Positions 14,033-39,390 of a DNA stretch of 39,727 bases are shown in pieces. The position numbers were made by a program, and so were the translations under genes. Within the stretch, counting starts at the first letter, position 1, and each line of letters opens with the position of its first letter. The notes beneath the pieces are model-generated. The model did no database searches, was not told the origin of the DNA, and saw only the letters and a list, made by a program, of their open reading frames with translations. Origin of the DNA: an uncultured Candidatus Peribacteria bacterium (GTDB lineage: Bacteria; Patescibacteriota; Gracilibacteria; Peribacterales; Peribacteraceae); assembly GCA_964517345.1 (NCBI GenBank), contig CAZFBZ010000001.1:7767-47493 (forward strand), read 5' to 3'.

Positions 14033-14076
14033 CGATTGACGCTTTAGTGCCGGTGGGTCACGCTGTGCCGCCGTTT

Positions 14077-18918: not shown

Positions 18919-18972
18919 GGAAATGACCGTACCAGCGCGTGACGGGCGGGGCAAAGTACAGTCTGCTTAACG

Positions 18973-22245: not shown

Positions 22246-22327
22246 AGAGGGACTCTACACCGCCGCCCAAAAAGAGAGAAGGCCGCTGCGACCCGGTTTT
22301 TGCCTCTGGGAAGCCGTTTGGACCCCT

Positions 22328-23461
22328 TCAGGCGGCCGCTTTCGCTCGGGTCCGCTTCGGTGCCGCTGCGGCCTCTGTCTTCGCCGTTTGGATCAGCTTT
22401 TCGTACAATCTTTCGTGGCTCTCGCCCATCGCTGCCAGGCTGTAGTTTTTGACCACGGCGTCGCGGCTGGTCGGGCGCAGGTTCTCCAGGTCTTTTTTAT
22501 CCAGCGCCACCAGCGCCTGATAAATCTCCTCTTCGTCGCATTCCTTCAGCAGATAGCCCGTCTTCCCGGGGATGATGATCTCGGGCGTCCCGCCTTTGTT
22601 CGTTGCCATCACCGGGGTTCCGCATGAGAGCGACTCGACCGGCACAAGCGAGAACGCTTCGTCCCAGCGGGTCGGCAGCACGGTCAGGTCCGCTTGCGCG
22701 TAGTGCGAGGCGATCTCCTTCTGGCCCTTCACGAAGCCGACCCATTTGATGCATGCGTCCTCCTTGGTTGCGCGGATGAGCAAGGGTTTGAGGTGGCCCG
22801 ATCCGACGATGCTCAGCACTACCTTGCGCTTCTGAGCGACGCGCCGGACGGCCTTGATCAGCACATCGATGCCTTTCTCCGGCATGATTTGTCCGACGAA
22901 CAGAAGATTGAGCGTGTCATTCTCCTTGCGCGGCTCCGGGCAGAAGACGCTCTCGTCGATGCCGGCATATTCCAGAAACACCTTCGAAGCCGGCAGCTTG
23001 GTGCGCTTCTGCACCTGTTTGAGGATGAATTTGCTGATGCAGTTCACGCCTGCGATCTTATTCAGATGCAGCTTGAGCATGGTGAAATGGCAGTACCACA
23101 CTTTATCGAGCACGTTGTGGTGTGACCCGACCGCTACGTGGAGCGTGACGAGGACGGGAGCACCGATCTTCCGCACGTACCCGAAGAGGAAATCGAACGT
23201 GCCGCACGGCCAGTGGTAATGGATGATGTCCGGACGGAACTCGCGGATTTTTTTGAGCAGTTCCATGGGGTTGTGTACCAGCGGCGCCAGGCCAAGCACG
23301 GACGTGGACCGCGCCTGCACGAGGAACTCGACGGATTCTTTTTTCCACTGCGCTTCGGTGACCATCAGCACGTCATGCTTTCTGCTGAGCATGTGCTTGT
23401 ACAGATTCAGACAATAGGACGCGATGCCCCGCTGGCCGGATGTCAGGATCACGATTCTCAT
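22328..23461 (-). CDS. GT-B fold glycosyltransferase (GT4-like)
   Basis: ORF 22328..23503 trimmed to the ATG at 23461 (MRIVILTSG..). C-terminal half LLFVGQIMPEKGIDVL..VLPTRWDEAFSLVPVESLSCGTPVMATNKGGTPEII shows the EX7E-type motif. Confidence 0.85.
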   Translation of the reverse strand: MRIVILTSGQRGIASYCLNLYKHMLSRKHDVLMVTEAQWKKESVEFLVQARSTSVLGLAPLVHNPMELLKKIREFRPDIIHYHWPCGTFDFLFGYVRKIGAPVLVTLHVAVGSHHNVLDKVWYCHFTMLKLHLNKIAGVNCISKFILKQVQKRTKLPASKVFLEYAGIDESVFCPEPRKENDTLNLLFVGQIMPEKGIDVLIKAVRRVAQKRKVVLSIVGSGHLKPLLIRATKEDACIKWVGFVKGQKEIASHYAQADLTVLPTRWDEAFSLVPVESLSCGTPVMATNKGGTPEIIIPGKTGYLLKECDEEEIYQALVALDKKDLENLRPTSRDAVVKNYSLAAMGESHERLYEKLIQTAKTEAAAAPKRTRAKAAA

Positions 23462-23534
23462 GTGGATGGCGGTAGGGGGACTCGACGAGTTTCGCCAATG
23501 CAAGCGACGACGCTCACAGAGGCGCTCTACGGCG

Positions 23535-23564
23535 AATGTAGCAAGGCGCCCCGCACGCGGTCAA
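23535..23564 (-). promoter_or_regulatory. candidate internal promoter TTGACC-N18-(TGc)TACATT upstream of the GT4 gene
   Basis: The minus strand reads ttgacc gcgtgcggggcgccttgc tacatt. It would give a leader of about 70 nt to the ATG at 23461. Confidence 0.4.
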
Positions 23565-23620
23565 CAGACCCCATGATCGTGGCTTTATGAAGCCATTTTT
23601 GGTGTCCGTAAAACCGGTGG

Positions 23621-25141
23621 TCAGCGGATGTCCTCGCTGTTCTGCGTGACGGCTTTCTTGGTCAGGAAGATCGACAGGAAGTTGACGCAGTAGATCCAGC
23701 CCATGAGCAGCAGCCCGCGGGAGGCGAAACGCCGTCCCGAAGAGTAGACGAAGAACCTGAATGAAAATTTGATTTTGCCGATGTCCCGGAGCCTGCGCGC
23801 TGTGGAGGCGTCCTCCCCGTAGAAATCGATCGAGGTGTCGAAGCCGCCCATCGTCATCAGCGCTTCTTTTTTGGCGACGAAGTTGCCGCCAACGACCTGC
23901 GTTCCCAGCAGGGAACTGAGCCGGTACAGAACCTTCCAGGAGTACCAGATGAACCGGCGGCGCACGTAGGACAGATCATAATAATCATAGGGGCCGCTGA
24001 GGCAGATGAGCGTGGGATCGCGCTTGAACTTCTCACGGATGACGTCGAACCAGCTGTCGGGCAGTTGGGTGTCTGCGTCCAGCGAAGCGTAGAAGTTTCC
24101 CCGCATTTCCGTCAGTCCGCGCTGGCGCGCGTAGGGCAGGCCTTTTTGGGGTTCGTAGATAACGCGGACCTGCGGGAACGATTTGGCGATCTGAGCGGTG
24201 CCGTCGGTGCTCGCATTGTCGACAACAATCACCTCCAGCAGTTCGGGATGGCGCTTGCGGAAAATACTTTCCAGGCAGGTGCGGATATAGCTTTCCTCAT
24301 TGAAGGCGGGAATGATGATGGAGATGCGCATCGGTTCCGAGCTGGGAGGCGCTTCAGGCCTCCAGGGGACGCCGGAGAGCCAGTAGAGCGGTTTCTGAAA
24401 GCGGTGCGGGACAAAGCCGATGACGAGCGAGGGCAGCGAGAACACGATGATGCCGACGACGAACCAGAACTCGCGGACGGGCAGGCCGACGAACAGGATC
24501 GGCAGCATCAGCACGAACGGCAGCGCCTGCAGAGCCACAAGCGCCGGCATCGTGTACGACTTCAGCGTCGGGCGGTTCGACGAGCCGGTGCGTTTCTCCA
24601 GCATGCGCCGTTGAACGCTGAACTGCGTACAGAGCAGGAACACGGCCAGGACCGTGCCGCCCATCCACGGCGTGCCGGCGATCGCCATGCCCAGGATGCA
24701 GCGCAGGGCGTGAGGCAGGGCGTTCGCTGCGAATTCGATATACGGCCAGCGCTTGGCTCCCAGGCTGTACAGTACGTTTGCGAGGATAAAGAGAATGAAC
24801 AACAGGAAGATGTTGTAGCCCAGGAAGGCATGTGCGTAGGACAATCCCGCGACAATACTGAACGCCACGTACAGCCATGCCTGCCACAGCCTCACGCGGC
24901 CCGAGGCGATCGGCCGGTGACGCTTCGCCGGATCTTCGCGGTCCAGTGAGACGTCGGCGATGTCGTTGAGTGCATACAGGCCTCCGTACAGAATGATATT
25001 GAACCCGATGTAGACAATCGCGAGACGGGGCAGCAGCTCCAGCAGCGGCATCTTGCCGAGCAGGATCGCCGAGGCGATAACCGTCGCGTAGTTGAAATGG
25101 CTGTGGAAGCGGATGAAGCCGAGGATGTCCCGAAGTTTCAT
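23621..25141 (-). CDS. fusion protein: N-terminal UbiA-family polyprenyl transferase domain plus C-terminal GT2 (GT-A) glycosyltransferase domain
   Basis: ORF 23621..25255 trimmed to the ATG at 25141 (MKLRDILGFIRF..). The UbiA part (about 25141-24332) is polytopic with the first Asp-rich motif YALNDIADVSLDREDPAKRHRPIASG. The GT2 part (about 24331-23621) has ISIIIPAFNEESYIRTCLESI..VIVVDNASTDGT and ASLDADT. It is one uninterrupted frame. Confidence 0.85.
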   Translation of the reverse strand: MKLRDILGFIRFHSHFNYATVIASAILLGKMPLLELLPRLAIVYIGFNIILYGGLYALNDIADVSLDREDPAKRHRPIASGRVRLWQAWLYVAFSIVAGLSYAHAFLGYNIFLLFILFILANVLYSLGAKRWPYIEFAANALPHALRCILGMAIAGTPWMGGTVLAVFLLCTQFSVQRRMLEKRTGSSNRPTLKSYTMPALVALQALPFVLMLPILFVGLPVREFWFVVGIIVFSLPSLVIGFVPHRFQKPLYWLSGVPWRPEAPPSSEPMRISIIIPAFNEESYIRTCLESIFRKRHPELLEVIVVDNASTDGTAQIAKSFPQVRVIYEPQKGLPYARQRGLTEMRGNFYASLDADTQLPDSWFDVIREKFKRDPTLICLSGPYDYYDLSYVRRRFIWYSWKVLYRLSSLLGTQVVGGNFVAKKEALMTMGGFDTSIDFYGEDASTARRLRDIGKIKFSFRFFVYSSGRRFASRGLLLMGWIYCVNFLSIFLTKKAVTQNSEDIR

Positions 25142-25145
25142 CGTG

Positions 25146-25604
25146 TCAGCGGAGAAGGAAGGACGCAGTCGCGACAGCAATGATGCCGCCTGCCAGAGCG
25201 CCGCCGATGACATCGTGCAGATGGTGGTGGCCCAGGCGGATCCGCGACCAGGCAACCCCGAGGACGATGGCGGCTGACAACCATGAGAGCAGCATATCCG
25301 GATGCACCAGCGAGAACGAGACGGCGAAGGCCGCGGCGCGCGCGGTGTGGATGCTGGGGAAGCTGCCGGCGTCGTAGCGGCCGTAGAGGCCTTTGTCTGG
25401 ACGCGGGATCGGGCGGGCGGTGGGATAAATCACTTTGAAGGCGCCGCAGAGAACCTCCGTGAGCAGCAGCGAGCCCAGTACCGGCATCCAGATACCGCTG
25501 ATGAGCCGTTCCAGCAGCAGTGCCGCGGGCAGATACACCGTCATCGTTCCGAAGGACGTGATTTCGGACGCGAACGTGTCGATAAGAGAAGATCGTGCGG
25601 TCAT
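25146..25604 (-). CDS. PAP2-superfamily (acid/lipid) phosphatase, membrane-bound
   Basis: 152 aa. All three PAP2 motifs are present: KVIYPTARP (KxxxxxxRP), FPSIHT (PSGH-like) and SRIRLGHHHLHDV (SRxxxxxHxxxD). Its stop lies 4 nt before the UbiA::GT2 start. Confidence 0.85.
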   Translation of the reverse strand: MTARSSLIDTFASEITSFGTMTVYLPAALLLERLISGIWMPVLGSLLLTEVLCGAFKVIYPTARPIPRPDKGLYGRYDAGSFPSIHTARAAAFAVSFSLVHPDMLLSWLSAAIVLGVAWSRIRLGHHHLHDVIGGALAGGIIAVATASFLLR

Positions 25605-25631: not shown

Positions 25632-26978
25632 TCAATCCTCGTCGACCTCGCCGATGTGGTCCCGCAGGACGTACTTGTCGAGGTTCTCTTTCCCGAGGGC
25701 CTTGATGATCTCGGGGATGGCGTCGTTGTAGGAGATCTGCTTCTGCTTTCCGGCCTTCATGTCGCGCAGAATGATCGTGTTTTCCTTCACCTCGAGCTTG
25801 CCGAGCAGCAGCGTGAAGCGCGACTCGAATTTGTCGGCCAGGCGCATCTGGCTCTTGAGGCTCGCCTCGCCGAGGGCACCGACGGTGTGCACGCCCTTCT
25901 CGCGGAGCTTGCTCACGAGAAGCAGACATTTCTTCTTGGCCTCGGGTCCCAACTGGGCGACGAACACGTCGACCTGGTCCTTGTTCGGGACCGTGACGCC
26001 CGCCTCCTTCATGTGCCAGATAACGCGCTCCACGCCCCCCGCGAAGCCCACGCCCGGCGTCGGCTTGCCGCCGAGCAGCTCGATCAGGCCGTCGTAGCGT
26101 CCGCCTCCGCCAATGGCGTTCTGTGCGCCGGAGCTGGAATCCCAGAATTCGAAGACGGTTTGCGTGTAGTAATCCAGTCCCCGCACGAGGCCCGGATTCG
26201 GCGTGTATTCGATACCGAGTTCATCCAGGTACTCCAGCAGCGTCGCGTGGAATTTCTTGCTCTCGTCGTTGATGAACTGGTCCATCTTCGGCGCGTTTTT
26301 CAGGAGGATCTGCGTGTCCTCCTCTTTGGAGTCGAGGAGACGCAGCGGGTTGTGCTGCAGGCGCGCGACGTCCTGCGCGGGCAGGTGACGCTCCTTGCCG
26401 ATGAAGTAGTCCTTGAGGGCGGCCGTGAAGTTTTTGCGATCCTCGGGCGTGCCGATGTTGTTGATCTGCAGCTTGAGGCGGTCGAGGATCTTCAGGTCGC
26501 TCAGCACCTTGGTGACAACGTGGATCAGCTGCGCGTCCAGGCTCGGATCGCGGAGTCCGATGACCTCGAAGTCGAACTGGTTGAACTGCCTGTAGCGGCC
26601 TTTCTGCGGACGGTCATAGCGGAAGCACTGGCCGATGGCATACAGCTCGACCGGCTGAGGCAGCTGCTGCATGCCGTGCTCGATGTACGAACGGCAGATA
26701 CCGGCGGTGAACTCCGGGCGGAGCGCGAACTGGGCCGACTTTCCCTCGTCATCCTTGCGTCCGACGACGGTGAAGAGCTCTTTCTCCACGATGTCCGTGT
26801 GCTCACCGATACCACGCTGGAACACGCCCTGGTGCTCGAACATCGGGGGGTCGATGCGTTTGTAACCGGCCTGGCGGGCGCGGTGACGCACGGCCTTCTT
26901 GATGTACGTCATGTACTGATGATCCTCGGGGAGGGCATCGTGGGTGCCTTTGGGCGTGCGGAAGAGTGGTTCGGACAT
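25632..26978 (-). CDS. hisS: histidine--tRNA ligase
   Basis: 448 aa. PKGTHDALPED, class II motif 2 CFRYDRPQKGRYRQFNQFDFEVIG, and motif 3 / HisA-HisB elements AIGGGGRYDGL and GVGFAGGVERV. Confidence 0.96.
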   Translation of the reverse strand: MSEPLFRTPKGTHDALPEDHQYMTYIKKAVRHRARQAGYKRIDPPMFEHQGVFQRGIGEHTDIVEKELFTVVGRKDDEGKSAQFALRPEFTAGICRSYIEHGMQQLPQPVELYAIGQCFRYDRPQKGRYRQFNQFDFEVIGLRDPSLDAQLIHVVTKVLSDLKILDRLKLQINNIGTPEDRKNFTAALKDYFIGKERHLPAQDVARLQHNPLRLLDSKEEDTQILLKNAPKMDQFINDESKKFHATLLEYLDELGIEYTPNPGLVRGLDYYTQTVFEFWDSSSGAQNAIGGGGRYDGLIELLGGKPTPGVGFAGGVERVIWHMKEAGVTVPNKDQVDVFVAQLGPEAKKKCLLLVSKLREKGVHTVGALGEASLKSQMRLADKFESRFTLLLGKLEVKENTIILRDMKAGKQKQISYNDAIPEIIKALGKENLDKYVLRDHIGEVDED

Positions 26979-27649: not shown

Positions 27650-27728
27650 TGGGGCGAGCGACGGGACTCGAACCCGCGACCCTCAGGACCACAACCTGAT
27701 GCTCTAACCAAGCTGAGCTACGCTCGCC
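27650..27728 (-). tRNA. tRNA-His (anticodon GUG) with encoded G-1 and 3' CCA
   Basis: Minus strand: G-GCGAGCG-TA-GCTC-AGCTTGGTTA-GAGC-A-TCAGG-TTGTGGT-CCTGA-GGGTC-GCGGG-TTCGAGT-CCCGT-CGCTCGC-C-CCA. This folds into a full cloverleaf. The anticodon loop is TT-GTG-GT, and the extra 5' G pairs with discriminator C73, which is the tRNA-His hallmark. Confidence 0.93.
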
Positions 27729-27868: not shown

Positions 27869-30800
27869 TCAGGCGGCGGTGCCAGTGGTCGCCGGGGGCG
27901 GCGAATCCGGGGCTTTGGGCTCGGTGAGGCTGTCGGCACGGACCACGAAGGCCACATCGCTGTCCTTCTTCTTTTGGGGTTCAACGGGAACGGGAGCGGG
28001 TTCTGCTTTCAGGATCGGCTTTTCTTCCATCACAGGCTGGGCCGGGGGTGTGACGACCGGTTCAGGTTTCTTGTCCGCGGCGGGCGCCGGTGCGGGATTG
28101 GCAGCGATGTTAACCGGAGCAGGCGCAACAGGAGCCGGGCTCGGAGCAGGAGTGACGGGTGCGGGGGCAGGGGATGGAGCGGACGGGGTTGCGGGCGATG
28201 TCGGCGGAGTCAGGGGGGTGCCCGGAGTGTCCGGTGCATCGGTGCCGTCTTCGTCATCATCCGTATCATTGTTTGCGGGCGCACCCGGAACTCCAGCAGC
28301 CGCTTGTTCCTTGCGCTTGCGCTGGTTCTCGCGATAGCGCATGCGCTTCCTGCGCTTGCGTTCCTTCTCGCGCTCGATGCGTTCCAGATCCTCCTTGGAG
28401 ATGGCTGTTGGCGCGGCAGGAGCAGCAGCTGTCGTCGACGCAGGAGCGACTGCCTTCTGCATCACCGGAGGAGCCATTTCTTTTTTGACCTGCGCAGGAG
28501 CGCTGGGAGCCGGCTGAGACTGCACGGGCGGTGCAGCCTGGATTGTCGGCTTCTCTTCTTTCTTTTCCGGCGCCGGAGTCGCGTTCACGACCGGAGGCTG
28601 AACCGGCGCGGGTGCCGACTGCTCAGGCTTCTTGTCGATGACCGGAGCCGGAGCCGGTGCGGGTTCCGGTTTCTTCTCGACGATCGGCGCGGGCGCAGGC
28701 GTCGGGTCCGGCTTTTTTTCCACGACCGGAGCAGGCGCTGCGGGCGCAGGTTCGATCTTCGGCTCAGGCTTCTTCTCCACGACCGGCGGGGGAGTGGTCG
28801 GCAGGGGAGTCTCGGTTTTCACCTCCGGTTTGGGCTCGGGTTTTTTCTCAACGACCGGTGCCGGAGCCGGCTCGGCACTCGCGGGAGGTGGCGCAGGAGG
28901 CGTCGGCGTTGTAGCAGGCGTTTCTTTCTCCAGCCCCTTGCGAAGCCACGGTGGCGTGTCATCGGCCGGAGCGGTGTCTGTGGGGGGCTCTTTGCCCGGA
29001 GCCGCAACGGCCTTCTGCGAGAGTGCGGCGAGAGCCGCATCGGGAGGCGGCGGCGGAGCGTCGGTTGTTTTCGGTTTGGTCGTCTCCAGACCTTTCTGCA
29101 GCCAGGGCGGAGTGCTGTCTGCGGATGCCGAGGGTGACGGAGCGCCATCTGCTGGTGCAGAGGCGGCGGGAGGCGGCGGAGGCGGGGGGCCGGACTCCAC
29201 GGGGGTCTTCTGTGCATCGTCCCGCAGCCAGGGCGGAAGCGAATCTTCTTCCGACGGGAGAGCCGGTGTCGGAGGTTCCACTTTCGGCTCGGGCGCAGGC
29301 GCGGGTGCCGAAGCAGGAGCAGACACTGTCGTCGCAGGAGCGGCAGCCGTGACAGGTTCAGTGCGGGGCTCAGGGGCAGGGGCCGGAGGTTCGATTTTCG
29401 GCTCCGGCTTCGGCTCCGTTTTTTTCTCAGGCATCGGAGCGGTCTTTGGCGTCGGCGTCGGAGCGGGTTCTTTTGACGCCGCGGGAGCCGGTGCGGAACC
29501 GTCGGACGACAGGCCTTTCTTCAGCCAGCTCGGTGCGGCCTTTACGTCGACGAAATCGCTCGGCGGGGGCGTCAGTGCTTTTTCTTTCTTCTTCGGGGGT
29601 GTCGGTGCCTCGTCTTCGCTCGGCTTCTCGCTGGGGGTGGAGCGCTTGAGTTCAAGCAGCGGCGCGGCGGATTCGACGATCTCGGTAGGTGTGCCCTCTT
29701 TTTTCTTTTTGTCCGTGATTGTGGCATCCAATCCGTCGCCACGACGGATCAGACGCATGATGCCTGCGACGAGCACGACTCCCAGAAGCAACGCACCCAG
29801 TCCGACGCCAAGAAGCTTGGCAATTGACAGGAGCGTGCCGCCGATTCCCCCGCCGGACGGTGCTGGAGCGGATGGTGCGCTTGACGACGAGGCTGCGGCT
29901 GCGGATGCCGAGGAAACCGTGGAGCCCGTTGCGGCAGCGGCGCCGAGTCCCGAGAGCGAGATGGTCTTGGTCCCCTGTGAGATGATGCGAGCGGTGGTGA
30001 TGTTGCGCACAGTGACGGTAACGGTGTAGTCCCCGTCAGAGCGGTAGGTATGCACCGGCTCCGTGATGAGGCTCTGCGTGCCGTCGCCGAATTGCCAGTG
30101 GTAGAGAAGTTCGTTCGCGTTCGCCCCGACGAGCGGGAATATGAAGCCGATGTCCCCGCTGCCGCGGTTATCGATGCCGATCGTGCCGGGGATCTGGTCC
30201 GTTGGAAGCTCCGGTGTTCCCGCCCCCTCGTCGGGCGTGCCGTCCGGTCCCGGCGTTCCATCCGGATCCGGGGCGGGTTCGGCGTCGGTCGGGATAATGG
30301 CAAGCGACTGCTGCCGTCCGTCTTCGGCAAAGAGACGCATGGACCGCTCCGTTCTGTGGACGAGCCACAGGTGCAGGGCGTTCCCGTTCGTGCGGAAGAA
30401 CGCCTGGGAGTTGTCCTGGTCGTCCGCGGCTTCGCCGTTGCCGTTCGTGTCGCGGTTCGTATCCGTATCCAGATTGATCGCCCCCTCCGGCGCGAGTGGC
30501 GGCGTCAATTTGACGATGCTGCGTCCTGCGGGGAGTTCGATGCGTCCGTCGACAGATGAGGGATCGGTTGTGACGAGAGCGCCTTCCGGAATCTCCACTG
30601 CTTCCTCCTGAGTGTTACGGGGCTCGACGGTGACGTTGATGATCTTGCGTACATGATCCCCTGTCTGCGGAAAATCCGCGGATGCGTCGATCTGATACTC
30701 GCCCGGTTCCGTCAGGCGCAGACGGAACAACGGCTCCCGTCCGGCTTCCACGAAATTACGGTCTTTGGTCACAATCCAGCTCAGCTGCACTGGCTCGTTG

Positions 30801-30943
30801 TCGATCAGTGCGAGCGCCTCAAATACCTCGCCTGCGGCGAAGCGGACGGTTTCCTGGTCGATCTCGTTCTGCGCCTGAGCCAGCGGCAGAGCCGCCAGAA
30901 GCGGCAACGCGAGGCCGGCGAGGAGAGCGGGCAGACGGCGCAT
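27869..30943 (-). CDS. large single-pass membrane protein: signal peptide, extracellular Ig/PKD-like region, TM helix, approximately 625-aa Pro/Ala/Lys/Glu-rich low-complexity tail
   Basis: 1024 aa. Signal peptide MRRLPALLAGLALPLLAALPLAQA. PKD-type motif YHWQFGDGTQSLITEPVHTYRSDGDYTVTVTV (about 29954-30160). TM LLSIAKLLGVGLGALLLGVVLVAGIM (about 29750-29842) followed by RLIRRG..DKKKK. The tail carries 4 PPWLxKGL-type motifs, 5 VVEKKPEP repeats and a KR-rich helix. Confidence 0.85.
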   Translation of the reverse strand: MRRLPALLAGLALPLLAALPLAQAQNEIDQETVRFAAGEVFEALALIDNEPVQLSWIVTKDRNFVEAGREPLFRLRLTEPGEYQIDASADFPQTGDHVRKIINVTVEPRNTQEEAVEIPEGALVTTDPSSVDGRIELPAGRSIVKLTPPLAPEGAINLDTDTNRDTNGNGEAADDQDNSQAFFRTNGNALHLWLVHRTERSMRLFAEDGRQQSLAIIPTDAEPAPDPDGTPGPDGTPDEGAGTPELPTDQIPGTIGIDNRGSGDIGFIFPLVGANANELLYHWQFGDGTQSLITEPVHTYRSDGDYTVTVTVRNITTARIISQGTKTISLSGLGAAAATGSTVSSASAAAASSSSAPSAPAPSGGGIGGTLLSIAKLLGVGLGALLLGVVLVAGIMRLIRRGDGLDATITDKKKKEGTPTEIVESAAPLLELKRSTPSEKPSEDEAPTPPKKKEKALTPPPSDFVDVKAAPSWLKKGLSSDGSAPAPAASKEPAPTPTPKTAPMPEKKTEPKPEPKIEPPAPAPEPRTEPVTAAAPATTVSAPASAPAPAPEPKVEPPTPALPSEEDSLPPWLRDDAQKTPVESGPPPPPPPAASAPADGAPSPSASADSTPPWLQKGLETTKPKTTDAPPPPPDAALAALSQKAVAAPGKEPPTDTAPADDTPPWLRKGLEKETPATTPTPPAPPPASAEPAPAPVVEKKPEPKPEVKTETPLPTTPPPVVEKKPEPKIEPAPAAPAPVVEKKPDPTPAPAPIVEKKPEPAPAPAPVIDKKPEQSAPAPVQPPVVNATPAPEKKEEKPTIQAAPPVQSQPAPSAPAQVKKEMAPPVMQKAVAPASTTAAAPAAPTAISKEDLERIEREKERKRRKRMRYRENQRKRKEQAAAGVPGAPANNDTDDDEDGTDAPDTPGTPLTPPTSPATPSAPSPAPAPVTPAPSPAPVAPAPVNIAANPAPAPAADKKPEPVVTPPAQPVMEEKPILKAEPAPVPVEPQKKKDSDVAFVVRADSLTEPKAPDSPPPATTGTAA

Positions 30944-30948
30944 GTTTC

Positions 30949-31326
30949 TCAGATGAAGTTGCCGGAGGAGATGAAGCCCACCACGGCGCGCGCGAAGAAA
31001 ATCACGAGCAGACCGATGATGGCAAACAGGATGATCGACTTGGCTTTGGTCTTGGAATCATCCGAGCCCTGTCCGACAATCAGATAGATACCAGCGATGA
31101 CGATGACGACCACGGCGGCGAGCGCCATGAAGTTCAGCACCTTGCGCATGAGGTCGACAACGGCTTCGCGCAGGGTCTTTTTCACCGGACCCTGGATGTT
31201 GCCGGCCTCGCCGACGCCGCCTTCCAGACCGGGACCGTCGAAGACCTGTGCGTGAACCGGCACAACCGCCGAGAGCGGCATGCAGAGCGTCGCAAGCATT
31301 GTCAGCGACAAGAGCAGGTGTTTCAT
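30949..31326 (-). CDS. TrbC/VirB2-like (T4SS pilin-like) small secreted membrane protein
   Basis: 125 aa. Signal peptide ..PLSAVVPVHA, then two hydrophobic helices (FMALAAVVVIVIAGIYLIV and IILFAIIGLLVIFFARAVVGFI) joined by the short charged loop GQGSDDSKTKAKS. This is the VirB2/TrbC architecture. Its stop lies 5 nt before the start of the 1024-aa gene. Confidence 0.55.
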   Translation of the reverse strand: MKHLLLSLTMLATLCMPLSAVVPVHAQVFDGPGLEGGVGEAGNIQGPVKKTLREAVVDLMRKVLNFMALAAVVVIVIAGIYLIVGQGSDDSKTKAKSIILFAIIGLLVIFFARAVVGFISSGNFI

Positions 31327-31395: not shown

Positions 31396-32388
31396 ATGCG
31401 TCCGACCACCCCCCGCCAGCTTCTGGCACAAGCCCAAACGCCCGCCTTGCTCGTCTCCGATCCACTCTCGATCCGTTTTTTGACGGGTTTACGGCTTACA
31501 GCAGGGCTCCTGCTCATACTGCCACGCCGGGCATTGCTCTTCGTTGACGCGCGCTACACCGATGCCGCTGAGCGCTTCGCCCAGGGGGTCACGGTCCGGG
31601 AGTTCGGGGAGCTCGGAAAAATCCTGGAAGACGTGCCGGTTTGCGGCATCGAAGCTGAAGAGGTCACTGTTGCCCGTCTTGTTTCTTGGAAGAGGAAATT
31701 CAAGAATACAAAATTTGTTCGTACAGTTGGGGCGGTGGGCGCCTTTCGAAGACAGAAGACCGACCACGAACTGCGCTCGCTTCGTCGGGCGCACAAGATC
31801 ACCGGTGAACTGCTCCGTCGCGTGCCGTCGGCATTGCGCAAAAACATCACCGAAGACGGCCTTGCCCGGAAGCTTCTGCAGTGGGCCCTCGAACTTGGTG
31901 CCGATGGCCTGGCGTTCGATCCCATTGTCGGCTTCGGCACTCACACCAGTAGCCCGCATCATAGCCCCACATCGCGCGCACTGAAGCCCGGACATGTTGT
32001 GCAAGTCGACGTCGGCGCACGTGTGGACGGCTACTGCGGCGATCGTAGCGAGGTCTATTTCACCGCGCCGCCGACGCCGCTGCAGCGCCGCATCTATCAG
32101 ACACTATGCCTCGCGAAAGACCGCGCGATGAAAGCGGCGAAAGCCGGCGTCACCAATCATCAGCTGGATAAAATTGCACGCGATGTCCTGCGCAAAGAGG
32201 GCCTCGATGAGGTCTTCACGCACGCACTCGGACACGGTGTGGGACTCGAAGTGCACGAGGGTATTACGCTCTCGCAGAAGGCACCCAAGACAGAACTGCT
32301 ATCGCGTGAGGTCATTGCCATTGAACCCGGAGCGTACTTCCCAGGGCGGTTCGGCATGCGCGTCGAGGATATGGTCTTCGTCGAATGA
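31396..32388 (+). CDS. M24B family Xaa-Pro peptidase
   Basis: 330 aa. Pita-bread metal ligands in VQVDVGARVDGYCGDRSEV, HALGHGVGLEVHE and EPGAYFPGRFGMRVEDMVFV. A TATACT box at 31383-31388 lies 8 nt before the ATG. Confidence 0.88.
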   Translation: MRPTTPRQLLAQAQTPALLVSDPLSIRFLTGLRLTAGLLLILPRRALLFVDARYTDAAERFAQGVTVREFGELGKILEDVPVCGIEAEEVTVARLVSWKRKFKNTKFVRTVGAVGAFRRQKTDHELRSLRRAHKITGELLRRVPSALRKNITEDGLARKLLQWALELGADGLAFDPIVGFGTHTSSPHHSPTSRALKPGHVVQVDVGARVDGYCGDRSEVYFTAPPTPLQRRIYQTLCLAKDRAMKAAKAGVTNHQLDKIARDVLRKEGLDEVFTHALGHGVGLEVHEGITLSQKAPKTELLSREVIAIEPGAYFPGRFGMRVEDMVFVE

Positions 32389-32527: not shown

Positions 32528-33919
32528 ATGCGCAATACACACACCAACATTTTTGCTTTTATCATGGGCTCCATCGGTATTCCAGCTTTTCTGCTGACAG
32601 CGACTGTTGCCCATGCTGTTGCAGAAAATCCGTTCACGGCGGGCATACCCTTTGAGCAGGATCTCGTGATCACCGCTTATTACTCACCGCTCCCGGATCA
32701 GTGTTGCTACGTAAAGGGGAGTTTTGAGGATGATGTCATTCTCAATGGCGAAGGGCACCATGGCGCCGACGGGACTGCGGTGTATCCCGGCATGGTTGCC
32801 GCCCCGCCCCGGTATCCCTTTGGCACACGCATTGTCGTGCCCGGCATCGGCACGGTGACAGTGCATGATCGGGGAGGCGCGATTCAGGAACAGCAGAAGA
32901 GCCATCGTCTGGACGTGTGGGCAGGCGTCGGCGAGGAGGGTCTTGCCCGTGCTCTTGCCTTCGGCGTGAAGCGCGTTCGCGCGACTGTCTACCCTCCGGG
33001 CACTACGCAGCCTGCCGAGGAAATCGCCCTCGATGCCCTGCCCGCCCCTTTGCAGATTCTTCAGCCGTATGCCATTGGCGGATCTGTGCTTGCGCGTCTG
33101 CGCGCGACGTTCGGTTCGCAGAGTCTGAGCGCGCTGCTCGTCCAAAAATTTCTCGTCGAGATGGGTTACATGAATGAGAAAGCCACCGGCTACTTCGGCC
33201 AGGCCACGCGTTCCGCGTTGGCGGCGCTCTATCGCGATCTCGGCTTGGAGGAAAGTCCCGATGCCGTCACCGAACGCTCTGCCGCATTCCTGGAGGCGCT
33301 CCGCCGCCAGCAGGGGGCGAAAGAGCCGCTGCCCGCGATTGTCGACGCCACGAGTCCGCGGTCGCATATCGCTGAAGTCCAGCGCACGATGCGGTTTCTC
33401 GATCTCTACCGCGGACGCACCAGCGGCCACTATGACGACACCCTCTTCCGCGCCATCGCCAATTTTCAGAAGAGCGCCGGACTGATCGCCGATGATTCCT
33501 CGCCCGGCGCGGGACGCATCGGGCCCAAAACGCGCATGCTCCTCGCGTCGGCCTGGAAGCGCCGCATGGTGAGCCAGAAGGCGGAGCACATCCTGATGGT
33601 CGCTGAAATCGAGCGCATTGCGGCAAAACGCATGGGCATCACCGCATTCTTTGGCTTCGGGCAGAAAGGCGATCAGGTGAAGGTGCTCCAGCGGCTGCTG
33701 GCCTCGGCTGGTCTGCTGCCTGCGGATCAGGTGACGGGCCTGTTTGGCCCTATGACGCAAAAAGCCCTCGTCGCGTTCCAGATGAATGCCGGCATCATCA
33801 CGTCCGCATCCGATGATGGCGCCGGATACGTCGGGCCCGCCACGCTCGCCCGCGTCCGCACCGGAATGCGCGATCATCTCTACCGCCTCGTCCGCGCCCA
33901 GGGCTGGGACGCCCTCTGA
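32528..33919 (+). CDS. secreted cell-wall protein: 3D (MltA/YuiC-like) domain plus three PG_binding_1 repeats
   Basis: 463 aa with a signal peptide (..LLTATVAHA). 3D-type segment ITAYYSPLPDQ..NGEGHHGADGTAVYPGMVAAP..PFGTRIVVPGIGTVTVHDRGGAI..RLDVWAG. Three repeats of the type VQKFLVEMGYM..ATGYFGQATRSAL, VQRTMRFLDLY..SGHYDDTLFRAI and VKVLQRLLASAGLL..VTGLFGPMTQKAL. Confidence 0.8.
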   Translation: MRNTHTNIFAFIMGSIGIPAFLLTATVAHAVAENPFTAGIPFEQDLVITAYYSPLPDQCCYVKGSFEDDVILNGEGHHGADGTAVYPGMVAAPPRYPFGTRIVVPGIGTVTVHDRGGAIQEQQKSHRLDVWAGVGEEGLARALAFGVKRVRATVYPPGTTQPAEEIALDALPAPLQILQPYAIGGSVLARLRATFGSQSLSALLVQKFLVEMGYMNEKATGYFGQATRSALAALYRDLGLEESPDAVTERSAAFLEALRRQQGAKEPLPAIVDATSPRSHIAEVQRTMRFLDLYRGRTSGHYDDTLFRAIANFQKSAGLIADDSSPGAGRIGPKTRMLLASAWKRRMVSQKAEHILMVAEIERIAAKRMGITAFFGFGQKGDQVKVLQRLLASAGLLPADQVTGLFGPMTQKALVAFQMNAGIITSASDDGAGYVGPATLARVRTGMRDHLYRLVRAQGWDAL

Positions 33920-33938
33920 TTTTTTCCCGCACGTACCC

Positions 33939-34505
33939 ATGACTCCGACCGTCGTCCTCTATACCGATCTGTTCCTGCGCATCGTCGTCTCCGCTCTTCT
34001 CGGCGGCGCGATCGGCCTGGAACGTGTCTGGCACGGGCGGCCCGCGGGCCTGCGGACCAATATGATGATCGCCATCAGCTCGTGCTTGTTCACGATCCTG
34101 TCGATCTACGGATTCCCCGACGGTCCGGGGGTGGACGCTTCGCGCGTCGCCTCGCAGATCGTCGTCGGCGTGGGATTCCTCGGAGCCGGAACGGTGCTGC
34201 ATAACAACCATCACGTTCTGAACCTCACGACCGCGTCCACCATCTGGCTGGTCGCGGCCATCGGCATGGCCGCCGGCGTCGGCATGTATCTGCTTGCCGG
34301 TGTGGTCACGCTGCTCGCCGTCATCTCGCTCTCGTTTTTTGCGCCGCTCAGTGATTGGCTGAGTCACCACGCCGAACAGCACGCGCGCCGCAAGGGCGTC
34401 AAGATCGTCCACGAGGACTCCGGCGTGCATTTCGTTGCGCATCCCGCGCACCATCGCGCGCGGCATCGCAAGGAGCCCTTGGACGAGAGCATTGCCAAGG
34501 ATTAA
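33939..34505 (+). CDS. mgtC: MgtC/SapB family membrane protein
   Basis: ORF 33786..34505 trimmed to the ATG at 33939. RIVVSALLGGAIGLERVWHGRPAGLRTNMMIA and GVGFLGAGTVL are typical of MgtC. Confidence 0.85.
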   Translation: MTPTVVLYTDLFLRIVVSALLGGAIGLERVWHGRPAGLRTNMMIAISSCLFTILSIYGFPDGPGVDASRVASQIVVGVGFLGAGTVLHNNHHVLNLTTASTIWLVAAIGMAAGVGMYLLAGVVTLLAVISLSFFAPLSDWLSHHAEQHARRKGVKIVHEDSGVHFVAHPAHHRARHRKEPLDESIAKD

Positions 34506-34562: not shown

Positions 34563-35645
34563 ATGCGTCGTGCTATTGCCTTCCTGTGTCTCGCGCTTTC
34601 GTGTGCGCCCCCCGCGTTCGCCGCGGCTCCCGTGACGCGCCTCGATGGCTTCGTACAGATCTGGGACAGCATCCGGCGTCCGGCTGGTGACCCCCACGGT
34701 TACTTCTTTGACGACGTTCCCAAAGGCAGCAGGGGATCGGAGCAGGTGCTCTTCGCGCTCTACCGCGGAGTGATCGATAATGATGGTGATCTCTTTTATC
34801 CCGACGAGCCGCTGACGGCGTACCAGGCGTTGCTGTGGATCTTCCGGACGCGCAGTGTCGATGAGGAGGGCCTGTTCCCGGAGAAGGGCGAATCGATGGA
34901 CCCGGCGGTTGTCACCAGGATCGCGATGCGCATGGGCCTCGCGGAGTATCTGACCGGTGACGGCGGCGACATGAGCGTGTCGCGGCGGACCCTCACGCAG
35001 GAGGATGTATTCGCGATGATGCGGCGCGTCGATGCGATCCTGGCGGAAGAAATCCACGAAGCGAGCCTCTATTCCGAGAAATTCCAGGGCAAGGGCACAG
35101 CTTTCGGCGAGGCGTTTGACATGCATCAGCTGACTGCCGCGCATCGCACATTCCCGTACAACACGCTCGTGAAAGTGACCAACGTCGCCAACGACAAGAG
35201 CGTGATCGTGCGCATCAACGACCGCGGACCGTTCGTGAGCAAACGCGATATCGACCTGAGCCTCGCGTCCTTCCTGCAGATCGCCGACCGCGCGCTCGGC
35301 AAGATCAACGTGCGCTTCCAGCGTCTCGGCGACGTCAACCTCGTCGGGCAGTGCAGCACCGACAGAGGCATGCAGATGCGCATTGCCGGCAAGATTCGCC
35401 TCATACCGGGCCTGCCGTTGACGTCGCCCGCGGGCGAACCGATCACCTTGGCAGCCAACGGGCCCTTCGTCGTGCTTAAAGTGACGTATCCGGACGGGAC
35501 GGAATCGTGGCTCCAGGATTGGATACTGCCCTCGGAGAGCTACGTGCTGCGGCCCGCAGTGGATGGGCGATATACGTTCTTTGTCGGTACCGCCGACGGG
35601 CGCCGACGGGCGCTGGTCACGACTGTCGTTTCCTGCTCGTCCTGA
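34563..35645 (+). CDS. rlpA: RlpA-like (DPBB_1 double-psi beta-barrel) lytic transglycosylase-like lipoprotein/secreted protein
   Basis: 360 aa with signal peptide MRRAIAFLCLALSCAPPAFAAAP. DPBB core EASLYSEKFQGKGTAFGEAFDMHQLTAAHRTFPYNTLVKVTNVANDKSVIVRINDRGPFVSKRDIDLS. The N-terminal region is SLH-like (FFDDVPKGS..LTAYQALLWIF). Confidence 0.8.
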   Translation: MRRAIAFLCLALSCAPPAFAAAPVTRLDGFVQIWDSIRRPAGDPHGYFFDDVPKGSRGSEQVLFALYRGVIDNDGDLFYPDEPLTAYQALLWIFRTRSVDEEGLFPEKGESMDPAVVTRIAMRMGLAEYLTGDGGDMSVSRRTLTQEDVFAMMRRVDAILAEEIHEASLYSEKFQGKGTAFGEAFDMHQLTAAHRTFPYNTLVKVTNVANDKSVIVRINDRGPFVSKRDIDLSLASFLQIADRALGKINVRFQRLGDVNLVGQCSTDRGMQMRIAGKIRLIPGLPLTSPAGEPITLAANGPFVVLKVTYPDGTESWLQDWILPSESYVLRPAVDGRYTFFVGTADGRRRALVTTVVSCSS

Positions 35646-35734: not shown

Positions 35735-38344
35735 GTGTTCACTTTCCTGCGCGTCTTCCTCTGGCCGATCATCTGGGTCACCGTGATCCTGGTGGGTGAG
35801 CTGTTGCGCATAAACGTGCTCGGCGCGTTTTGGGGGTGGTTCATCCAGAACCCGATTGAGAACATCTTCCTGCTGCTCACGATCTGGTTGATCTGGGGCA
35901 TCATCAAATTCAATATCCGTTTTACCTACGCTTGGTGGATGTCCCGCAAGCTCGTCTGCATGAAAGTCATGCTCCCGCGCAGCGACAGCAAGATCGATCA
36001 GGAGAAGCGCACTGAAAAAGATTTCAAAGAGAAGGTCGCGCTCATGGAACAGCTCTACCGCGCGCTGTGGGAAGTGCGCAGTCTCACCTTCTGGCAGTTC
36101 GTGCACTTCTGGATGTTCCGCTACGCCACGATGAGCTTCGAGACGTTCATCGAGAAAGGCGAACTGCAGTTCTATGTCCTCACGCTGCCGAGCCTGGTTT
36201 CCATCGTGGAGAAGCAGATCACCGCGTTCTATTCGGACGCCGAGGTATCCGTGACCAAGGCTCCTGACGTCTGGCCCAAAGGCTACAAGCTTGTGGGCTA
36301 CAACATGCTCGTCAAAAAGAAGTACATCTTCCCGATCCGCTTCTACGAGGAAATGCAGGATGACCCGCTCAACGACATCGCGAACGTGATGAGCAAGCTG
36401 GATACCGACGAGCGCGCTTCCGTGCAGGTCGTCATCACGCCGTGCTTCTCCGACAAGTGGAGCCGTGCGGTGAAGCGTTATGCGAGCTTGAAATTCAAGG
36501 GCAAAGAAGACAGCTGGGTCGCACGCATCCCGATCCTCTCGACATTCATCCGCGTCCTCAGCGGCGTGGCAACCGGCGGCGACGGCGAGACGTTCGCGCC
36601 CGGTGCGGCCCACGGCGACAGCTTCGTCCGTATGATCCAGCCGGAGGAAGAGCTCTACAAGCGCATGGGCCAGAAGGCCGGCATGAGCGGCTTCGACGTT
36701 TCGGTGCGCATCATGGCCGCAGCCAAAACCTGGAAACGCGCCATCGACATCACCAACAACATGCAGGTGGCCTTCAACGTCTACAAAGACATCTACGGCA
36801 ACTGGCTCGCCAACCGCCGCATGATTCTGGAGTTCATGCCCTTCGCGTGGAATGCCCCCATGATCTACTGGCTGTGGAAGCACCGAATCAACGGCTATGC
36901 GCACCCCACGAACCTCATGGTCGAGAAGGAGCTGGCCGGCCTGTATCACTTCCCGGACAGCCGCTACAACAAGATCCCGGTCATTCAGTGGATCACGTAC
37001 AAAGTGCTGCCCCCTCCGCCGAATATTCCCAAGGAGGGCGTGCTGCTCGGCCTCAACAAGTACCGCGCCGAGGAGACGCAGATCCGCTTCCTCCACGGCG
37101 ACCGTACACGCCACGAGTACATCATTGGAAAATCCGGTTCGGGTAAATCCGCGCTTTTGAACTTCCAGGCGCGTCAGGACGTGTCTGACAACGAAGGCCT
37201 CTGCGTGGTCGATCCGCACGGAGACCTGATCGAAGACATCCTTGCGCACGTGCCCAAGGAGCGTGCCAAGGACGTCATCCTGTTCGACCCGTCCGATATT
37301 GACCGCCCCATGGGCCTGAACCTTCTTGAGGCAAAAACCGACGAAGAGAAAGACCGCGCGTCACTGGACGCGATGGAAATCTTCATCAAGCTCTTCGGTA
37401 ATGAGATCTTCGGTCCCCGCATCCAGCACTACTTCCGCAACGGTTGTCTGACCCTGATGGACGACGAGGAGGAGGGCGCCACGCTCATCGACGTGCCGCG
37501 CCTCTACGTGGACGACGAGTTCCAGCGCTACAAGGTGAGCAAGTGCAAGAACGTCGTCGTGCGCAGCTTCTGGGAGCATGAAATCGCCAAGACCGGCCAG
37601 CGCGAAAAAGAGGAAATGATCCCGTACTTCTCGGCCAAGTTCGGTCCCTTCGTGACCAACACGACGATGCGCAACATCATCGGACAGCCGAAGAGCGCCT
37701 TCCAGGTCCGCGAGGTCATGGACACGGGCAAGATCCTCCTGGTCAACCTCTCCAAGGGTAAGATCGGCGACGTCAACGCGCAGCTGCTCGGCCTGATCTT
37801 CGTCAACAAGGTGAACATGGCGGCCCTCTCGCGCGCAGACATGCCGCAGAAAGACCGCAAGCGCTTCTACCTCTACGTCGACGAGTTCCAGAACTTCGTC
37901 ACCGACGCTTTCGCCACGATCCTCTCCGAAGCGCGTAAGTACGAGCTCGGCCTGATCATGGCCCACCAGTACATCGGCCAGCTCGTCGGCAAGACCGGCG
38001 ACTACGAGCAGTCGTCCACGAAAATGCGCGACGCCGTTTTCGGTAACGTGGGTACCATCCTCAGCTTCAAGATCGGCGCCGAGGACGCCGAGTACATGGC
38101 GAAAGAAATGGCGCCGGTACTCAGCGAACAGGACGTGATAGGCATTCCGAACTTCAACTGCTATGTGAAGCTGAACATCAACAACACGACCAGTCGTCCG
38201 TTCAGCATGGCGACGATCTACGACGAGTCCAACCGCAACGACAAGCTCGCAGCGCTCATCAAGGAATACAGCCGCATGAAGTACGGCCGCAAGAAGATTT
38301 TCGTCAACCAGGAGATCGAGGACCGCATCGGTATCACGCGCTAA
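35735..38344 (+). CDS. VirD4/TraG/TraD-like type IV secretion coupling-protein-like ATPase with a long uncharacterised N-terminal domain
   Basis: 869 aa with a GTG start. Two N-terminal TM helices. Walker A IIGKSGSGKSALL (about 37127-37150), then VVDPHGD and Walker B FYLYVDEFQNF (about 37870). TraG-D_C-like LSEARKYELGLIMAHQYIGQL. Confidence 0.75.
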   Translation: MFTFLRVFLWPIIWVTVILVGELLRINVLGAFWGWFIQNPIENIFLLLTIWLIWGIIKFNIRFTYAWWMSRKLVCMKVMLPRSDSKIDQEKRTEKDFKEKVALMEQLYRALWEVRSLTFWQFVHFWMFRYATMSFETFIEKGELQFYVLTLPSLVSIVEKQITAFYSDAEVSVTKAPDVWPKGYKLVGYNMLVKKKYIFPIRFYEEMQDDPLNDIANVMSKLDTDERASVQVVITPCFSDKWSRAVKRYASLKFKGKEDSWVARIPILSTFIRVLSGVATGGDGETFAPGAAHGDSFVRMIQPEEELYKRMGQKAGMSGFDVSVRIMAAAKTWKRAIDITNNMQVAFNVYKDIYGNWLANRRMILEFMPFAWNAPMIYWLWKHRINGYAHPTNLMVEKELAGLYHFPDSRYNKIPVIQWITYKVLPPPPNIPKEGVLLGLNKYRAEETQIRFLHGDRTRHEYIIGKSGSGKSALLNFQARQDVSDNEGLCVVDPHGDLIEDILAHVPKERAKDVILFDPSDIDRPMGLNLLEAKTDEEKDRASLDAMEIFIKLFGNEIFGPRIQHYFRNGCLTLMDDEEEGATLIDVPRLYVDDEFQRYKVSKCKNVVVRSFWEHEIAKTGQREKEEMIPYFSAKFGPFVTNTTMRNIIGQPKSAFQVREVMDTGKILLVNLSKGKIGDVNAQLLGLIFVNKVNMAALSRADMPQKDRKRFYLYVDEFQNFVTDAFATILSEARKYELGLIMAHQYIGQLVGKTGDYEQSSTKMRDAVFGNVGTILSFKIGAEDAEYMAKEMAPVLSEQDVIGIPNFNCYVKLNINNTTSRPFSMATIYDESNRNDKLAALIKEYSRMKYGRKKIFVNQEIEDRIGITR

Positions 38345-38557
38345 AAAGCGAGATAGGTAAAAACTATGCCATCCCGGATTTTTCAGAACGGATGCGTGCC
38401 TCGTTACGGCCGCGCTTTGCGACGGCCTACTCGGCATGACATATTTTGTGTTCTAAAGATTTGCCATCCTGAGTAGAAAGCCGCGGAGCGGATTTCGTAA
38501 TGAAGGGCAAAAACGATGTCACCCTGAGCGTAGTCGAAGGGTGCCACTGTCATTTTT

Positions 38558-38585
38558 TTGACATGTGCCCAGCAAGCCTCACAAT
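38558..38585 (+). promoter_or_regulatory. sigma70-type promoter TTGACA-N16-CACAAT
   Basis: Hexamers at 38558-38563 and 38580-38585, preceded by a T7 run. The next ATG (38592) lies 7 nt after the -10 box. Confidence 0.6.
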
Positions 38586-38591
38586 CGGCGC

Positions 38592-39035: not shown

Positions 39036-39047
39036 CGCCCGTTTTTC

Positions 39048-39056
39048 TGGTACCAT
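39048..39056 (+). promoter_or_regulatory. extended -10 box TGGTACCAT, 7 nt upstream of the ybaB ATG
   Basis: Read directly. No SD. Confidence 0.4.
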
Positions 39057-39062
39057 CGGCCC

Positions 39063-39359: not shown

Positions 39360-39390
39360 GAAAAGTCTGGGATTTGATACTTGGGTCCGG

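Follow-up and report, generated by a model that had tools for sequence, protein, structure and literature searches.

A 39,727-nt stretch of DNA from an uncultured Candidatus Peribacteria bacterium (assembly GCA_964517345.1, contig CAZFBZ010000001.1, positions 7,767 to 47,493; hereafter the window) encodes on its minus strand, at 27869..30943 with the stop codon included, a 1024-aa bitopic protein that joins an ectodomain with a PKD domain to a long, proline-rich tail. Judged by its orthologs, this tail is a string of five classes of family-conserved islands between spacers that cannot be aligned. The gene directly follows that of a VirB2-like type IV secretion system (T4SS) pilin. We consider it somewhat better than an even bet, at roughly 55%, that the protein is a receptor or adaptor of type I at the cell surface, coupled to the pilin, the disordered tail of which would act as a docking scaffold for putative partners. 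An earlier note on this DNA, made from the letters alone, had suggested that repeated motifs in the tail recruit a partner. This reading is partly supported: the motifs are conserved, and that they recruit partners is what we infer from them.

Orthologs were collected with histidyl-tRNA synthetase (HisRS) as an anchor. A HisRS scan of species-representative genomes delivered 80 loci with 10-kb flanks, all of them from metagenome-assembled genomes of Candidatus Peribacteria/Peregrinibacteria, which belong to the candidate phyla radiation (CPR), with 99% identity for the best locus. By tblastn of the neighbours, an ectodomain ortholog was detected in 50 of these loci, and 45 sequences were used for the alignment. 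Compared with the window, the ectodomains are 24–35% identical over their full length and the pilins mostly 31–58%, while HisRS is identical at 72–86% (99% in L001, a locus of the same species).

The architecture of the protein can be stated plainly. Every element that the earlier note had listed was found at its place, namely the open reading frame (ORF), the signal peptide, an Asp-rich loop, a PKD domain, a transmembrane (TM) helix, the short motifs and repeats, a basic helix, an acidic patch and the segment VAFVVRADSL. The signal peptide (aa 1–24; 30872..30943, minus strand like all features of this protein) was recognized by sequence reading; it begins with MRR, has a hydrophobic core (hydropathy 2.09) and ends in AQA followed by QN, with AQ conserved at this position among the orthologs. 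Behind it lies an N-terminal Ig-like beta-sandwich (aa 27–107; 30623..30865), the strands of which were predicted by AlphaFold2 (AF2) at a pLDDT of about 65–83. The Asp-rich loop (aa 156–178; 30410..30478) follows the family consensus LDxDxxxDxDGDGxxxNDxD, in which D159, D165, G170 and D175 are conserved at 90% or more in the 45-sequence alignment; going by its motif type alone, it probably binds Ca2+. The PKD domain spans aa 275–330 (29954..30121). In a Pfam scan, aa 275–316 matched PKD_4 (PF18911) with 43.8 bits against a cutoff of 27 (2.6e-11) and PKD (PF00801) with 37 bits against a cutoff of 23.5 (3.3e-9), and AF2 placed PKD strands over aa 279–330. The signature WQFGDGT...HTYRSDGDYTVTV, with its GDYTVTV end, covers aa 283–311; W283 and G286 never vary among the 45 aligned orthologs, while F285, D287 and Y306 reach 90% conservation or more. 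A profile of the ortholog ectodomains searched against PDB retrieved the PKD domains of ColH collagenase (1.6e-22) and nothing else, and Foldseek with the ectodomain model, which is of low confidence, gave generic Ig/FN3/PKD ectodomain matches only. Thus, the Ig-like, Asp-loop and PKD sequence behind the signal peptide amounts to about 350 aa, and a single TM helix follows (aa 377–396; 29756..29815; hydropathy up to 2.61, AF2 helix at 368–400). The remaining 628 aa (aa 397–1024) form the tail, which is composed of 25% Pro, 17% Ala, 10% Lys, 9% Glu and 8% Thr, carries the acidic patch at aa 893–902 and is the longest of the 50-ortholog set. Its C-terminal reading frame is validated by a C-terminal motif kept in 48 of the 50 orthologs.

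On which side of the membrane this tail lies is central to any functional interpretation. Signal peptide, Asp-rich loop and PKD domain are all found on the N side of the lone TM helix, and in every ortholog (n = 50) the PKD domain is followed by one strongly hydrophobic helix. In the window protein, the basic sequence RLIRRG...DKKKK comes directly after this helix. Among the orthologs, the 15 residues behind it contain on average 4.26 Lys and Arg, compared to 1.32 in the 15 residues ahead of it, with more after than before in 48 of 50. This positive-inside bias, together with the location of signal peptide and PKD domain across the membrane, places the tail inside the cell, as the earlier note had predicted; by these rules, an N-out/C-in topology is very probable. 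Even a signal peptide that stayed uncleaved and served as an anchor would leave the tail in the cytoplasm.

The reverse arrangement would turn the tail into a proline-rich spacer that spans the wall from outside, as do the rods of TonB and VirB10 or the wall-spanning regions of Gram-positive proteins. Peribacteria have a Gram-positive-type wall, the window encodes a protein with S-layer homology (SLH) domains, and the EP/KP-rich stretches of the tail (VVEKKPEPKPEVK) bear what we take to be a resemblance to the TonB rod. However, signal peptide and PKD domain occupy the other side of the lone helix and the charge bias holds in 48 of 50 orthologs. In addition, a search of the window protein for LP.TG or LPXTG and for a C-terminal hydrophobic anchor found none of them, neither Pfam nor the AF2 model shows a C-terminal globular domain, and the KP/EP repeats are private to the window genome. 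We thus regard an extracellular tail as highly improbable. The comparison with TonB and VirB10 extends to alternating Glu-Pro and Lys-Pro stretches in a bitopic protein near a T4SS, whereas those proteins are N-in and expose both the proline-rich rod and a C-terminal globular domain, which is the opposite topology; Pfam detected neither a TonB_C nor a TrbI domain in the window protein, which does not belong to this type. Neither is it an LPXTG adhesin, as its hydrophobic helix is followed by 628 aa that lack LP.TG.

The first class of islands in the tail is built around tryptophan. All four Trp residues of the window tail are part of a P-x-W-L sequence, and these copies span nt 28928–29545: copy 1 (VKAAPSWLKKGLSS; W473; 29504..29545), copy 2 (EDSLPPWLRDDAQ; W572; 29210..29248), copy 3 (ADSTPPWLQKGLE; W614; 29084..29122) and copy 4 (ADDTPPWLRKGLE; W666; 28928..28966), the last three found by sequence reading and the first being the positionally conserved one. 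Since 20,000 shuffled versions of the tail never yielded more than two copies (the chance of this context is 0.0086 per Trp), their occurrence is beyond chance. The same context holds 139 of the 150 Trp residues across the 50 orthologous tails and is present in 49 of them, at 1–8 and commonly 2–3 copies each. Moreover, P471, W473 and L474 are three of just seven invariant columns in the 45-sequence alignment, which covers the first 511 residues. The first copy is located 49–108 aa past the TM helix and reads A-P-[AS]-W-L-K-K-G-L-E (family consensus AP[AS]WLKKGLE), while later copies read [VLT]-P-P-W-L-[QKR] with acidic or polar residues ahead. The PPWLxKGL motif of the earlier note is hence conserved across relatives, but its conserved core is P-x-W-L and not the full string. 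Within the loci, every ORF with at least two copies is an ortholog (42/42), and the motif was not seen in any other gene. By these comparisons, P-x-W-L is a conserved, family-specific short linear motif. Recent internal duplication, which the earlier note had named as a possible cause of its recurrence, is ruled out as the source of the copies, as their DNA is 68–74% identical in the window, over 34 nt only, and 49 of 50 tails carry the motif. A literature search for the motif strings returned nothing relevant, and no paper mentioning these motifs was found.

How might such a motif work? In 13 of 49 first copies and 19 of 90 later copies a Pro is found at position +3, which points to recognition in an extended conformation rather than as an amphipathic helix. 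This bears on the idea that the islands, chiefly the first copy with its P[AS]WLKKGL, are interfacial or amphipathic elements that lie on the inner leaflet and make the tail a membrane skirt or lipid organizer. Trp favors membrane interfaces, and in the consensus of the first copy W, L and L at 0, +1 and +5 together with K K at +2 and +3 give a small amphipathic face; presumably, this resembles membrane-targeting helices such as the C-terminus of Escherichia coli FtsA (...SWLRKEF). While this is possible for the first copy, the later ones fit poorly: most read [VLT]PPWLQ and continue with Pro or with polar or acidic residues, and the +3 Pro precludes an amphipathic helix in those copies that have it. 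The strictly invariant Pro at −2 suggests a peptide conformation that is recognized, AF2 predicts no helix at the P-x-W-L sites, and six or seven residues are short for a membrane anchor. Membrane binding by these islands is therefore rather unlikely in our view.

One might also speculate that P-x-W-L mimics the C-terminal peptide of FtsZ and binds FtsA or SepF, which would link the protein to the division machinery. By eye, the motif can be brought into register with the E. coli peptide DIPAFLRKQAD (quoted in PMC9098913 and PMC4117426): a hydrophobic residue at −3, P at −2, an aromatic residue at 0, L at +1, K/R/Q at +2/+3 and acidic residues upstream. The FtsZ peptide is, furthermore, a known landing pad that ends a disordered linker (PMC3418248). 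Yet, when 132 motif instances were built into a profile and searched against the PDB sequences, no FtsZ chain came up at E ≤ 10. In a local hmmsearch E. coli FtsZ gave no match at all, and the C-terminal (CTC) peptides of other species reached no more than 0.6 bits, which put them at rank 194 or below in a background of ORFs. The Trp is invariant in 139 instances and never replaced by Phe, and neither ftsZ nor ftsA nor sepF occurs near the locus. Having failed two profile tests, FtsZ mimicry is unsupported and very improbable.

P-x-W-L does not stand alone, and in this respect the motif inventory of the earlier note was incomplete: a juxtamembrane helix, a PPxLELKR motif, the basic helix and the C-terminal strand proved to be conserved in their own right. 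Ortholog comparison placed a juxtamembrane basic stretch and a PLLELKR motif at aa 397–436 (29636..29755). In the family, a helix G(G/S)LQKxLExAExKL is followed here by (I)DVAPPxLELKR; the helix is degenerate in the window genome and PLLELKR is kept. Further down, an Arg/Lys-rich helix (aa 848–882; 28298..28402; family motif ERERKRRKRQRYRENLKKR, consensus ERERERKRRKRQRYRENLKKR) is shared by 26 of the 50 orthologs and also occurs in P0152 and L081, with eight invariant columns. It is the only tail segment that AF2 models at a pLDDT of 84–93, and a profile search with it against PDB gave no match. Near the end of the protein follows the C-terminal strand motif (aa 992–1006; 27926..27970; KKDSDVAFVVRADSL, family consensus DDxVAF(V)IRA[DE]S), which includes VAFVVRADSL (aa 997–1006) and for which AF2 predicts a strand at 998–1003. 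It lies 3–55 aa from the C-terminus in the tails that carry it, among them 47 of 47 in an examined subset. In a six-frame translation of the loci (about 1.5 million residues), the tail motifs other than P-x-W-L were found only in orthologs or in fragments of orthologs at contig ends. Independent orthologs from databases (P0151, P0152) and from a metagenome (L081) carry the same motif set.

A different verdict applies to the VVEKKPEP-type repeats, of which the earlier note had counted five matching [VI][VI][ED]KKP[ED]P. Five diverged tandem units of 14 aa are indeed present (aa 695–776; 28616..28861), with a 42-nt spacing and DNA copies that are 61–75% identical, but the fifth reads KKPEQ. As the motif is absent from the 49 orthologs searched and thus private to the window protein, we rejected these repeats as a functional motif; by this comparison they are a lineage-specific spacer.

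Outside the islands, the tail seems to be largely devoid of structure. Pooled over the 50 orthologs (18,981 aa), tails consist of 24% Pro, 14% Ala, 9% Thr, 9% Glu and 7% Lys, and full-length AF2 modeling gave a pLDDT below 50 over aa 400–1024 except for the helix at 850–882 and the C-terminal strand. The tail is consequently predicted to be unstructured save for one Arg-rich helix and one short strand. With its low-complexity composition, its predicted disorder (AF2 with a shallow alignment) and its conserved islands in non-alignable sequence, it resembles the class of short-linear-motif scaffolds. Such a tail could, in a simpler view, serve chiefly as an entropic spacer or bristle, or its low complexity might let it self-associate and gather the protein into a condensate or patch at the pilus base, with the motifs acting homotypically. 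The extreme composition, the alternating K/E-Pro stretches, P-x-W-L copy numbers from one to eight and spacers that differ between species from 196 to 628 aa are all compatible with this. What argues against it is order and conservation. In 22 of the 26 tails with the basic helix, all P-x-W-L copies precede this helix, which in turn precedes the C-terminal motif, and the five motif classes are far better conserved than the ectodomain, with a mean column identity of 61% for the basic helix against 25–35% identity for the ectodomain. Fixed order and high conservation of the islands indicate specific recognition elements and not generic stickers, and a mere spacer or condensate former is thus unlikely. 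The ectodomain appears to evolve fast, as surface proteins do, whereas the motif set seems to evolve slowly, as would be expected of peptides constrained by partners.

The genomic context links the protein to a pilus. Directly upstream of its gene lies the pilin gene (30949..31326, minus strand; 125 aa), which matches PF18895 with 30.3 bits against a cutoff of 26.6, shows the N-terminal leader and the two hydrophobic stretches of this family, and has a weak NCBIfam match to the Mbov_0395 pilin-like conjugal protein. Its TGA stop is followed by GAAAC and then by the ATG of the large gene, a gap of 5 nt, from which the earlier note had concluded that both are co-transcribed. The proposed check of whether the gene pair is conserved supports this: the pilin gene sits directly upstream in 46 loci, with gaps of −26 to +42 nt. 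As 46 adjacent pairs are conserved and 13 of them overlap by 4 nt in the ATGA manner, the sequences strongly indicate a translationally coupled operon. Scans for promoters and terminators in its vicinity remained at chance level. In nine loci (L016, L025, L036, L051, L052, L056, L063, L070 and L076), three to five pilin paralogs instead of one are located upstream of the ortholog, which matches the pilin arrays described for other Patescibacteria.

The wider surroundings are conserved as well. A gene for an M24 peptidase is found on one strand and the genes for the pilin, the large protein, tRNA-His and HisRS on the other; M24 peptidase, pilin, large protein and HisRS are kept in 46–50 loci, and in 46 genomes the pair of pilin and large protein precedes tRNA-His and hisS. 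In the window, the synteny marker tRNA-His(GTG) (27650..27727, minus strand) is located directly downstream of the coding sequence and upstream of hisS (25632–26978, minus strand), which was identified in the Pfam scan; tRNA-His and the gene of its own synthetase thus adjoin on the same strand. Divergent from the operon runs a string of plus-strand genes that opens with the M24 peptidase gene. Two of these encode cell-wall hydrolase-like proteins, one with three PG_binding_1 domains and a 3D domain (32528–33919) and a DPBB/RlpA-like one (34563–35645). The last encodes a VirD4-like type IV coupling protein (35735..38344), recognized by T4SS-DNA_transf, TrwB_AAD_bind and TraG-D_C in Pfam and as VirD4-like in NCBIfam. 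Within the 10-kb flanks, the three genes are conserved in 36, 36 and 26 loci, the VirD4-like protein at the same relative position and with 68–80% identity. Judged by these neighbors, the pair of pilin and large protein belongs to a T4SS-flavored neighborhood.

From these observations the following picture can be drawn. A type I (N-out, C-in) envelope protein would share its transcript with a VirB2-like T4SS pilin. Its ectodomain would be displayed on the cell surface, where it may meet the pilin, the pilus or a host, and its tail would hang in the cytoplasm as a flexible docking scaffold, each island of which would bind a cytoplasmic partner. Several P-x-W-L copies could provide avidity, and an element like the Arg-rich helix would be suited to binding nucleic acid or an acidic surface. 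Going by the conserved neighborhood, T4SS ATPases such as the VirD4-like coupling protein encoded 5 kb away would be the likeliest partners, which is a guess. In this manner, the protein might work like an adhesion receptor or adaptor with a single membrane pass and connect a surface structure with the inside of the cell.

A number of points weigh against this picture. The multivalency suggested in the earlier note fits most tails, which have several copies of P-x-W-L, but seven orthologs have a single copy and L034 has none, so that multivalency is neither universal nor obligatory; likewise, 24 of the 50 orthologs lack the Arg-rich helix. PDB profile searches with the P-x-W-L and basic-helix motifs gave no hint of a partner. 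Neither virB4 nor virB6 is present in the window, and membership in a T4SS is thus by neighborhood only. The topology was derived from sequence rules. Finally, both AF2 runs (ectodomain and full length) used 3-sequence alignments and had low overall confidence, so that low pLDDT alone is weak evidence of disorder.

L034 itself deserves a remark. This most divergent ortholog (L034:7020-8771; 583 aa with a 196-aa tail) has TPNWMKK in place of P-x-W-L and neither a basic helix nor a C-terminal motif; this copy may be decaying or functionally shifted.

A bolder version of the proposed receptor or adaptor can be envisioned, in which the protein is a lineage-specific missing component of the patescibacterial T4SS. 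The ectodomain would be located at the pilus base or contact the host, the tail would dock VirD4-like or VirB4 ATPases through P-x-W-L and the C-terminal strand, and the Arg-rich helix would hold nucleic acid, such that the adaptor couples host contact to substrate uptake or delivery in systems without a relaxase. We consider this doubtful. It was reported that VirB2-like pilins are widespread in Patescibacteria and that some of their arrays are interrupted by non-pilin genes; that T4SS clusters of this group revealed no adhesin or adaptor and are mostly devoid of a relaxase; and that epibiotic growth of the one strain tested required its T4SS and VirB2-like pilin genes (PMC12102498, a 2025 survey). 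With the MPF-FATA-like T4SS of Patescibacteria and other monoderms, the window locus shares the coupling to a PF18895 pilin and the VirD4-like and cell-wall hydrolase-like neighbors. The large protein, in contrast, matches no profile of a T4SS component such as VirB1-11, a PrgB-type adhesin or TrsD: PKD was its sole match in Pfam, and NCBIfam gave a sub-threshold match to polycystin.

Compared with known systems, the protein combines features that are otherwise found apart. Like ColH and archaeal S-layer proteins, it has a bona fide PKD domain in its ectodomain; these, however, are secreted enzymes or wall and S-layer proteins, and only about 55 of the 1024 residues of the window protein are PKD. 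We know of no PKD surface protein that is single-pass and has a motif-bearing cytoplasmic tail of hundreds of residues. The FtsZ C-terminal linker with its peptide shares the organization of non-alignable linkers between short conserved islands, though no sequence relationship, and we assume that the C-terminal half of RNase E, with Arg-rich RNA-binding segments and short partner sites, offers a resemblance in organization only. An Arg-rich segment and a terminal strand or helix motif are among the islands that invite these comparisons. Both systems differ from the window scaffold, in which a TM helix ties the tail to an extracellular domain. With adhesion receptors it has an Ig-like, Ca2+-type ectodomain, one TM helix and a motif-bearing cytoplasmic tail in common; to cadherins, integrins and the P1-type adhesins of Mycoplasma with their Pro-rich C-terminal regions we take the relation to be one of functional analogy, not of homology. 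The only family memberships that hold are PKD, over these 55 or so residues, and PF18895 for the neighboring gene. What appears to be new is a PKD surface protein joined to a conserved and predicted cytoplasmic scaffold and coupled to a CPR pilin.

If this interpretation is correct, it would matter in three respects. For host-dependent Patescibacteria, the protein would be a concrete candidate for a link between host contact and the cell interior. To our knowledge, such a motif-studded tail has not been described before for these bacteria. The five motifs are short enough for peptide baits or multimer-prediction screens, which would make the inner contacts of the pilus system testable. Third, the protein might show clearly, in a bacterium, a receptor-like design based on a disordered tail with motifs, which is better known in eukaryotes.

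Beyond the hisS-anchored loci, orthologs were hard to retrieve. A word-indexed search with the single ectodomain sequence found nothing, and the exact protein is absent from the gene-position index. Exhaustive HMMER with the ectodomain (PKD unmasked) was dominated by giant multi-PKD proteins and returned no orthologs, and a profile of ectodomain, TM helix and first motif gave two true orthologs only. A mini-profile of TM helix, juxtamembrane region, first motif and C-terminal motif detected none at the E-value scale of 5.8 billion sequences. The metagenome scan with the basic-helix profile led to 59 pattern sites, none of which was confirmed; a second metagenome scan delivered three orthologs amid PKD noise.

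The window as such is ordinary chromosome, with ATP synthase genes, gyrB, a proS-like gene, hisS, glycosyltransferase genes and the gene of an SLH-domain protein. Some of its other genes are worth mentioning. The M24 peptidase (31396–32388, plus strand; Creatinase_N and Peptidase_M24, of the Xaa-Pro aminopeptidase/prolidase type) lies opposite an operon that encodes a tail with 25% proline, and this pairing is kept in 46 loci at 42–62% identity. A functional link, for example turnover of Pro-rich peptides, is possible, or the pairing might be coincidence. The VirD4-like protein (869 aa) has two N-terminal TM helices and a domain of about 350 aa without family assignment ahead of its ATPase. 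Inside the divergent string, an MgtC gene (33786–34505) overlaps the end of the preceding ORF; it has no counterpart in the 80 loci and is probably a lineage-specific insertion. Past the coupling-protein gene, the ORFs 38500–39135 (plus strand) and 38883–39428 (minus strand) have no family match. One of them shows an atypical codon-position GC of 0.42/0.76/0.66, and the coding frame at the end of the window is ambiguous. Two adjacent ORFs of 171 and 249 aa (13517–14730, plus strand) have a coding-like GC3 and no match in Pfam or NCBIfam.

Two further observations concern the cell envelope. At 21130–25604 on the minus strand, glf (UDP-galactopyranose mutase), a GT4 glycosyltransferase gene, a gene for a GT2-UbiA prenyltransferase fusion (544 aa) and a PAP2 phosphatase gene stand in a row, and the full set is common only to the same-species locus L001. 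This set recalls the mycobacterial arabinogalactan cluster Rv3806c–Rv3809c (ubiA, PAP2, glfT2, glf); by this analogy, it hints at a wall polymer of the galactofuran or decaprenyl-phosphate-sugar type in a CPR bacterium. In addition, a 226-aa ORF (18274–18954, minus strand) contains two SLH domains, which suggests an S-layer that is anchored to a secondary cell-wall polymer.

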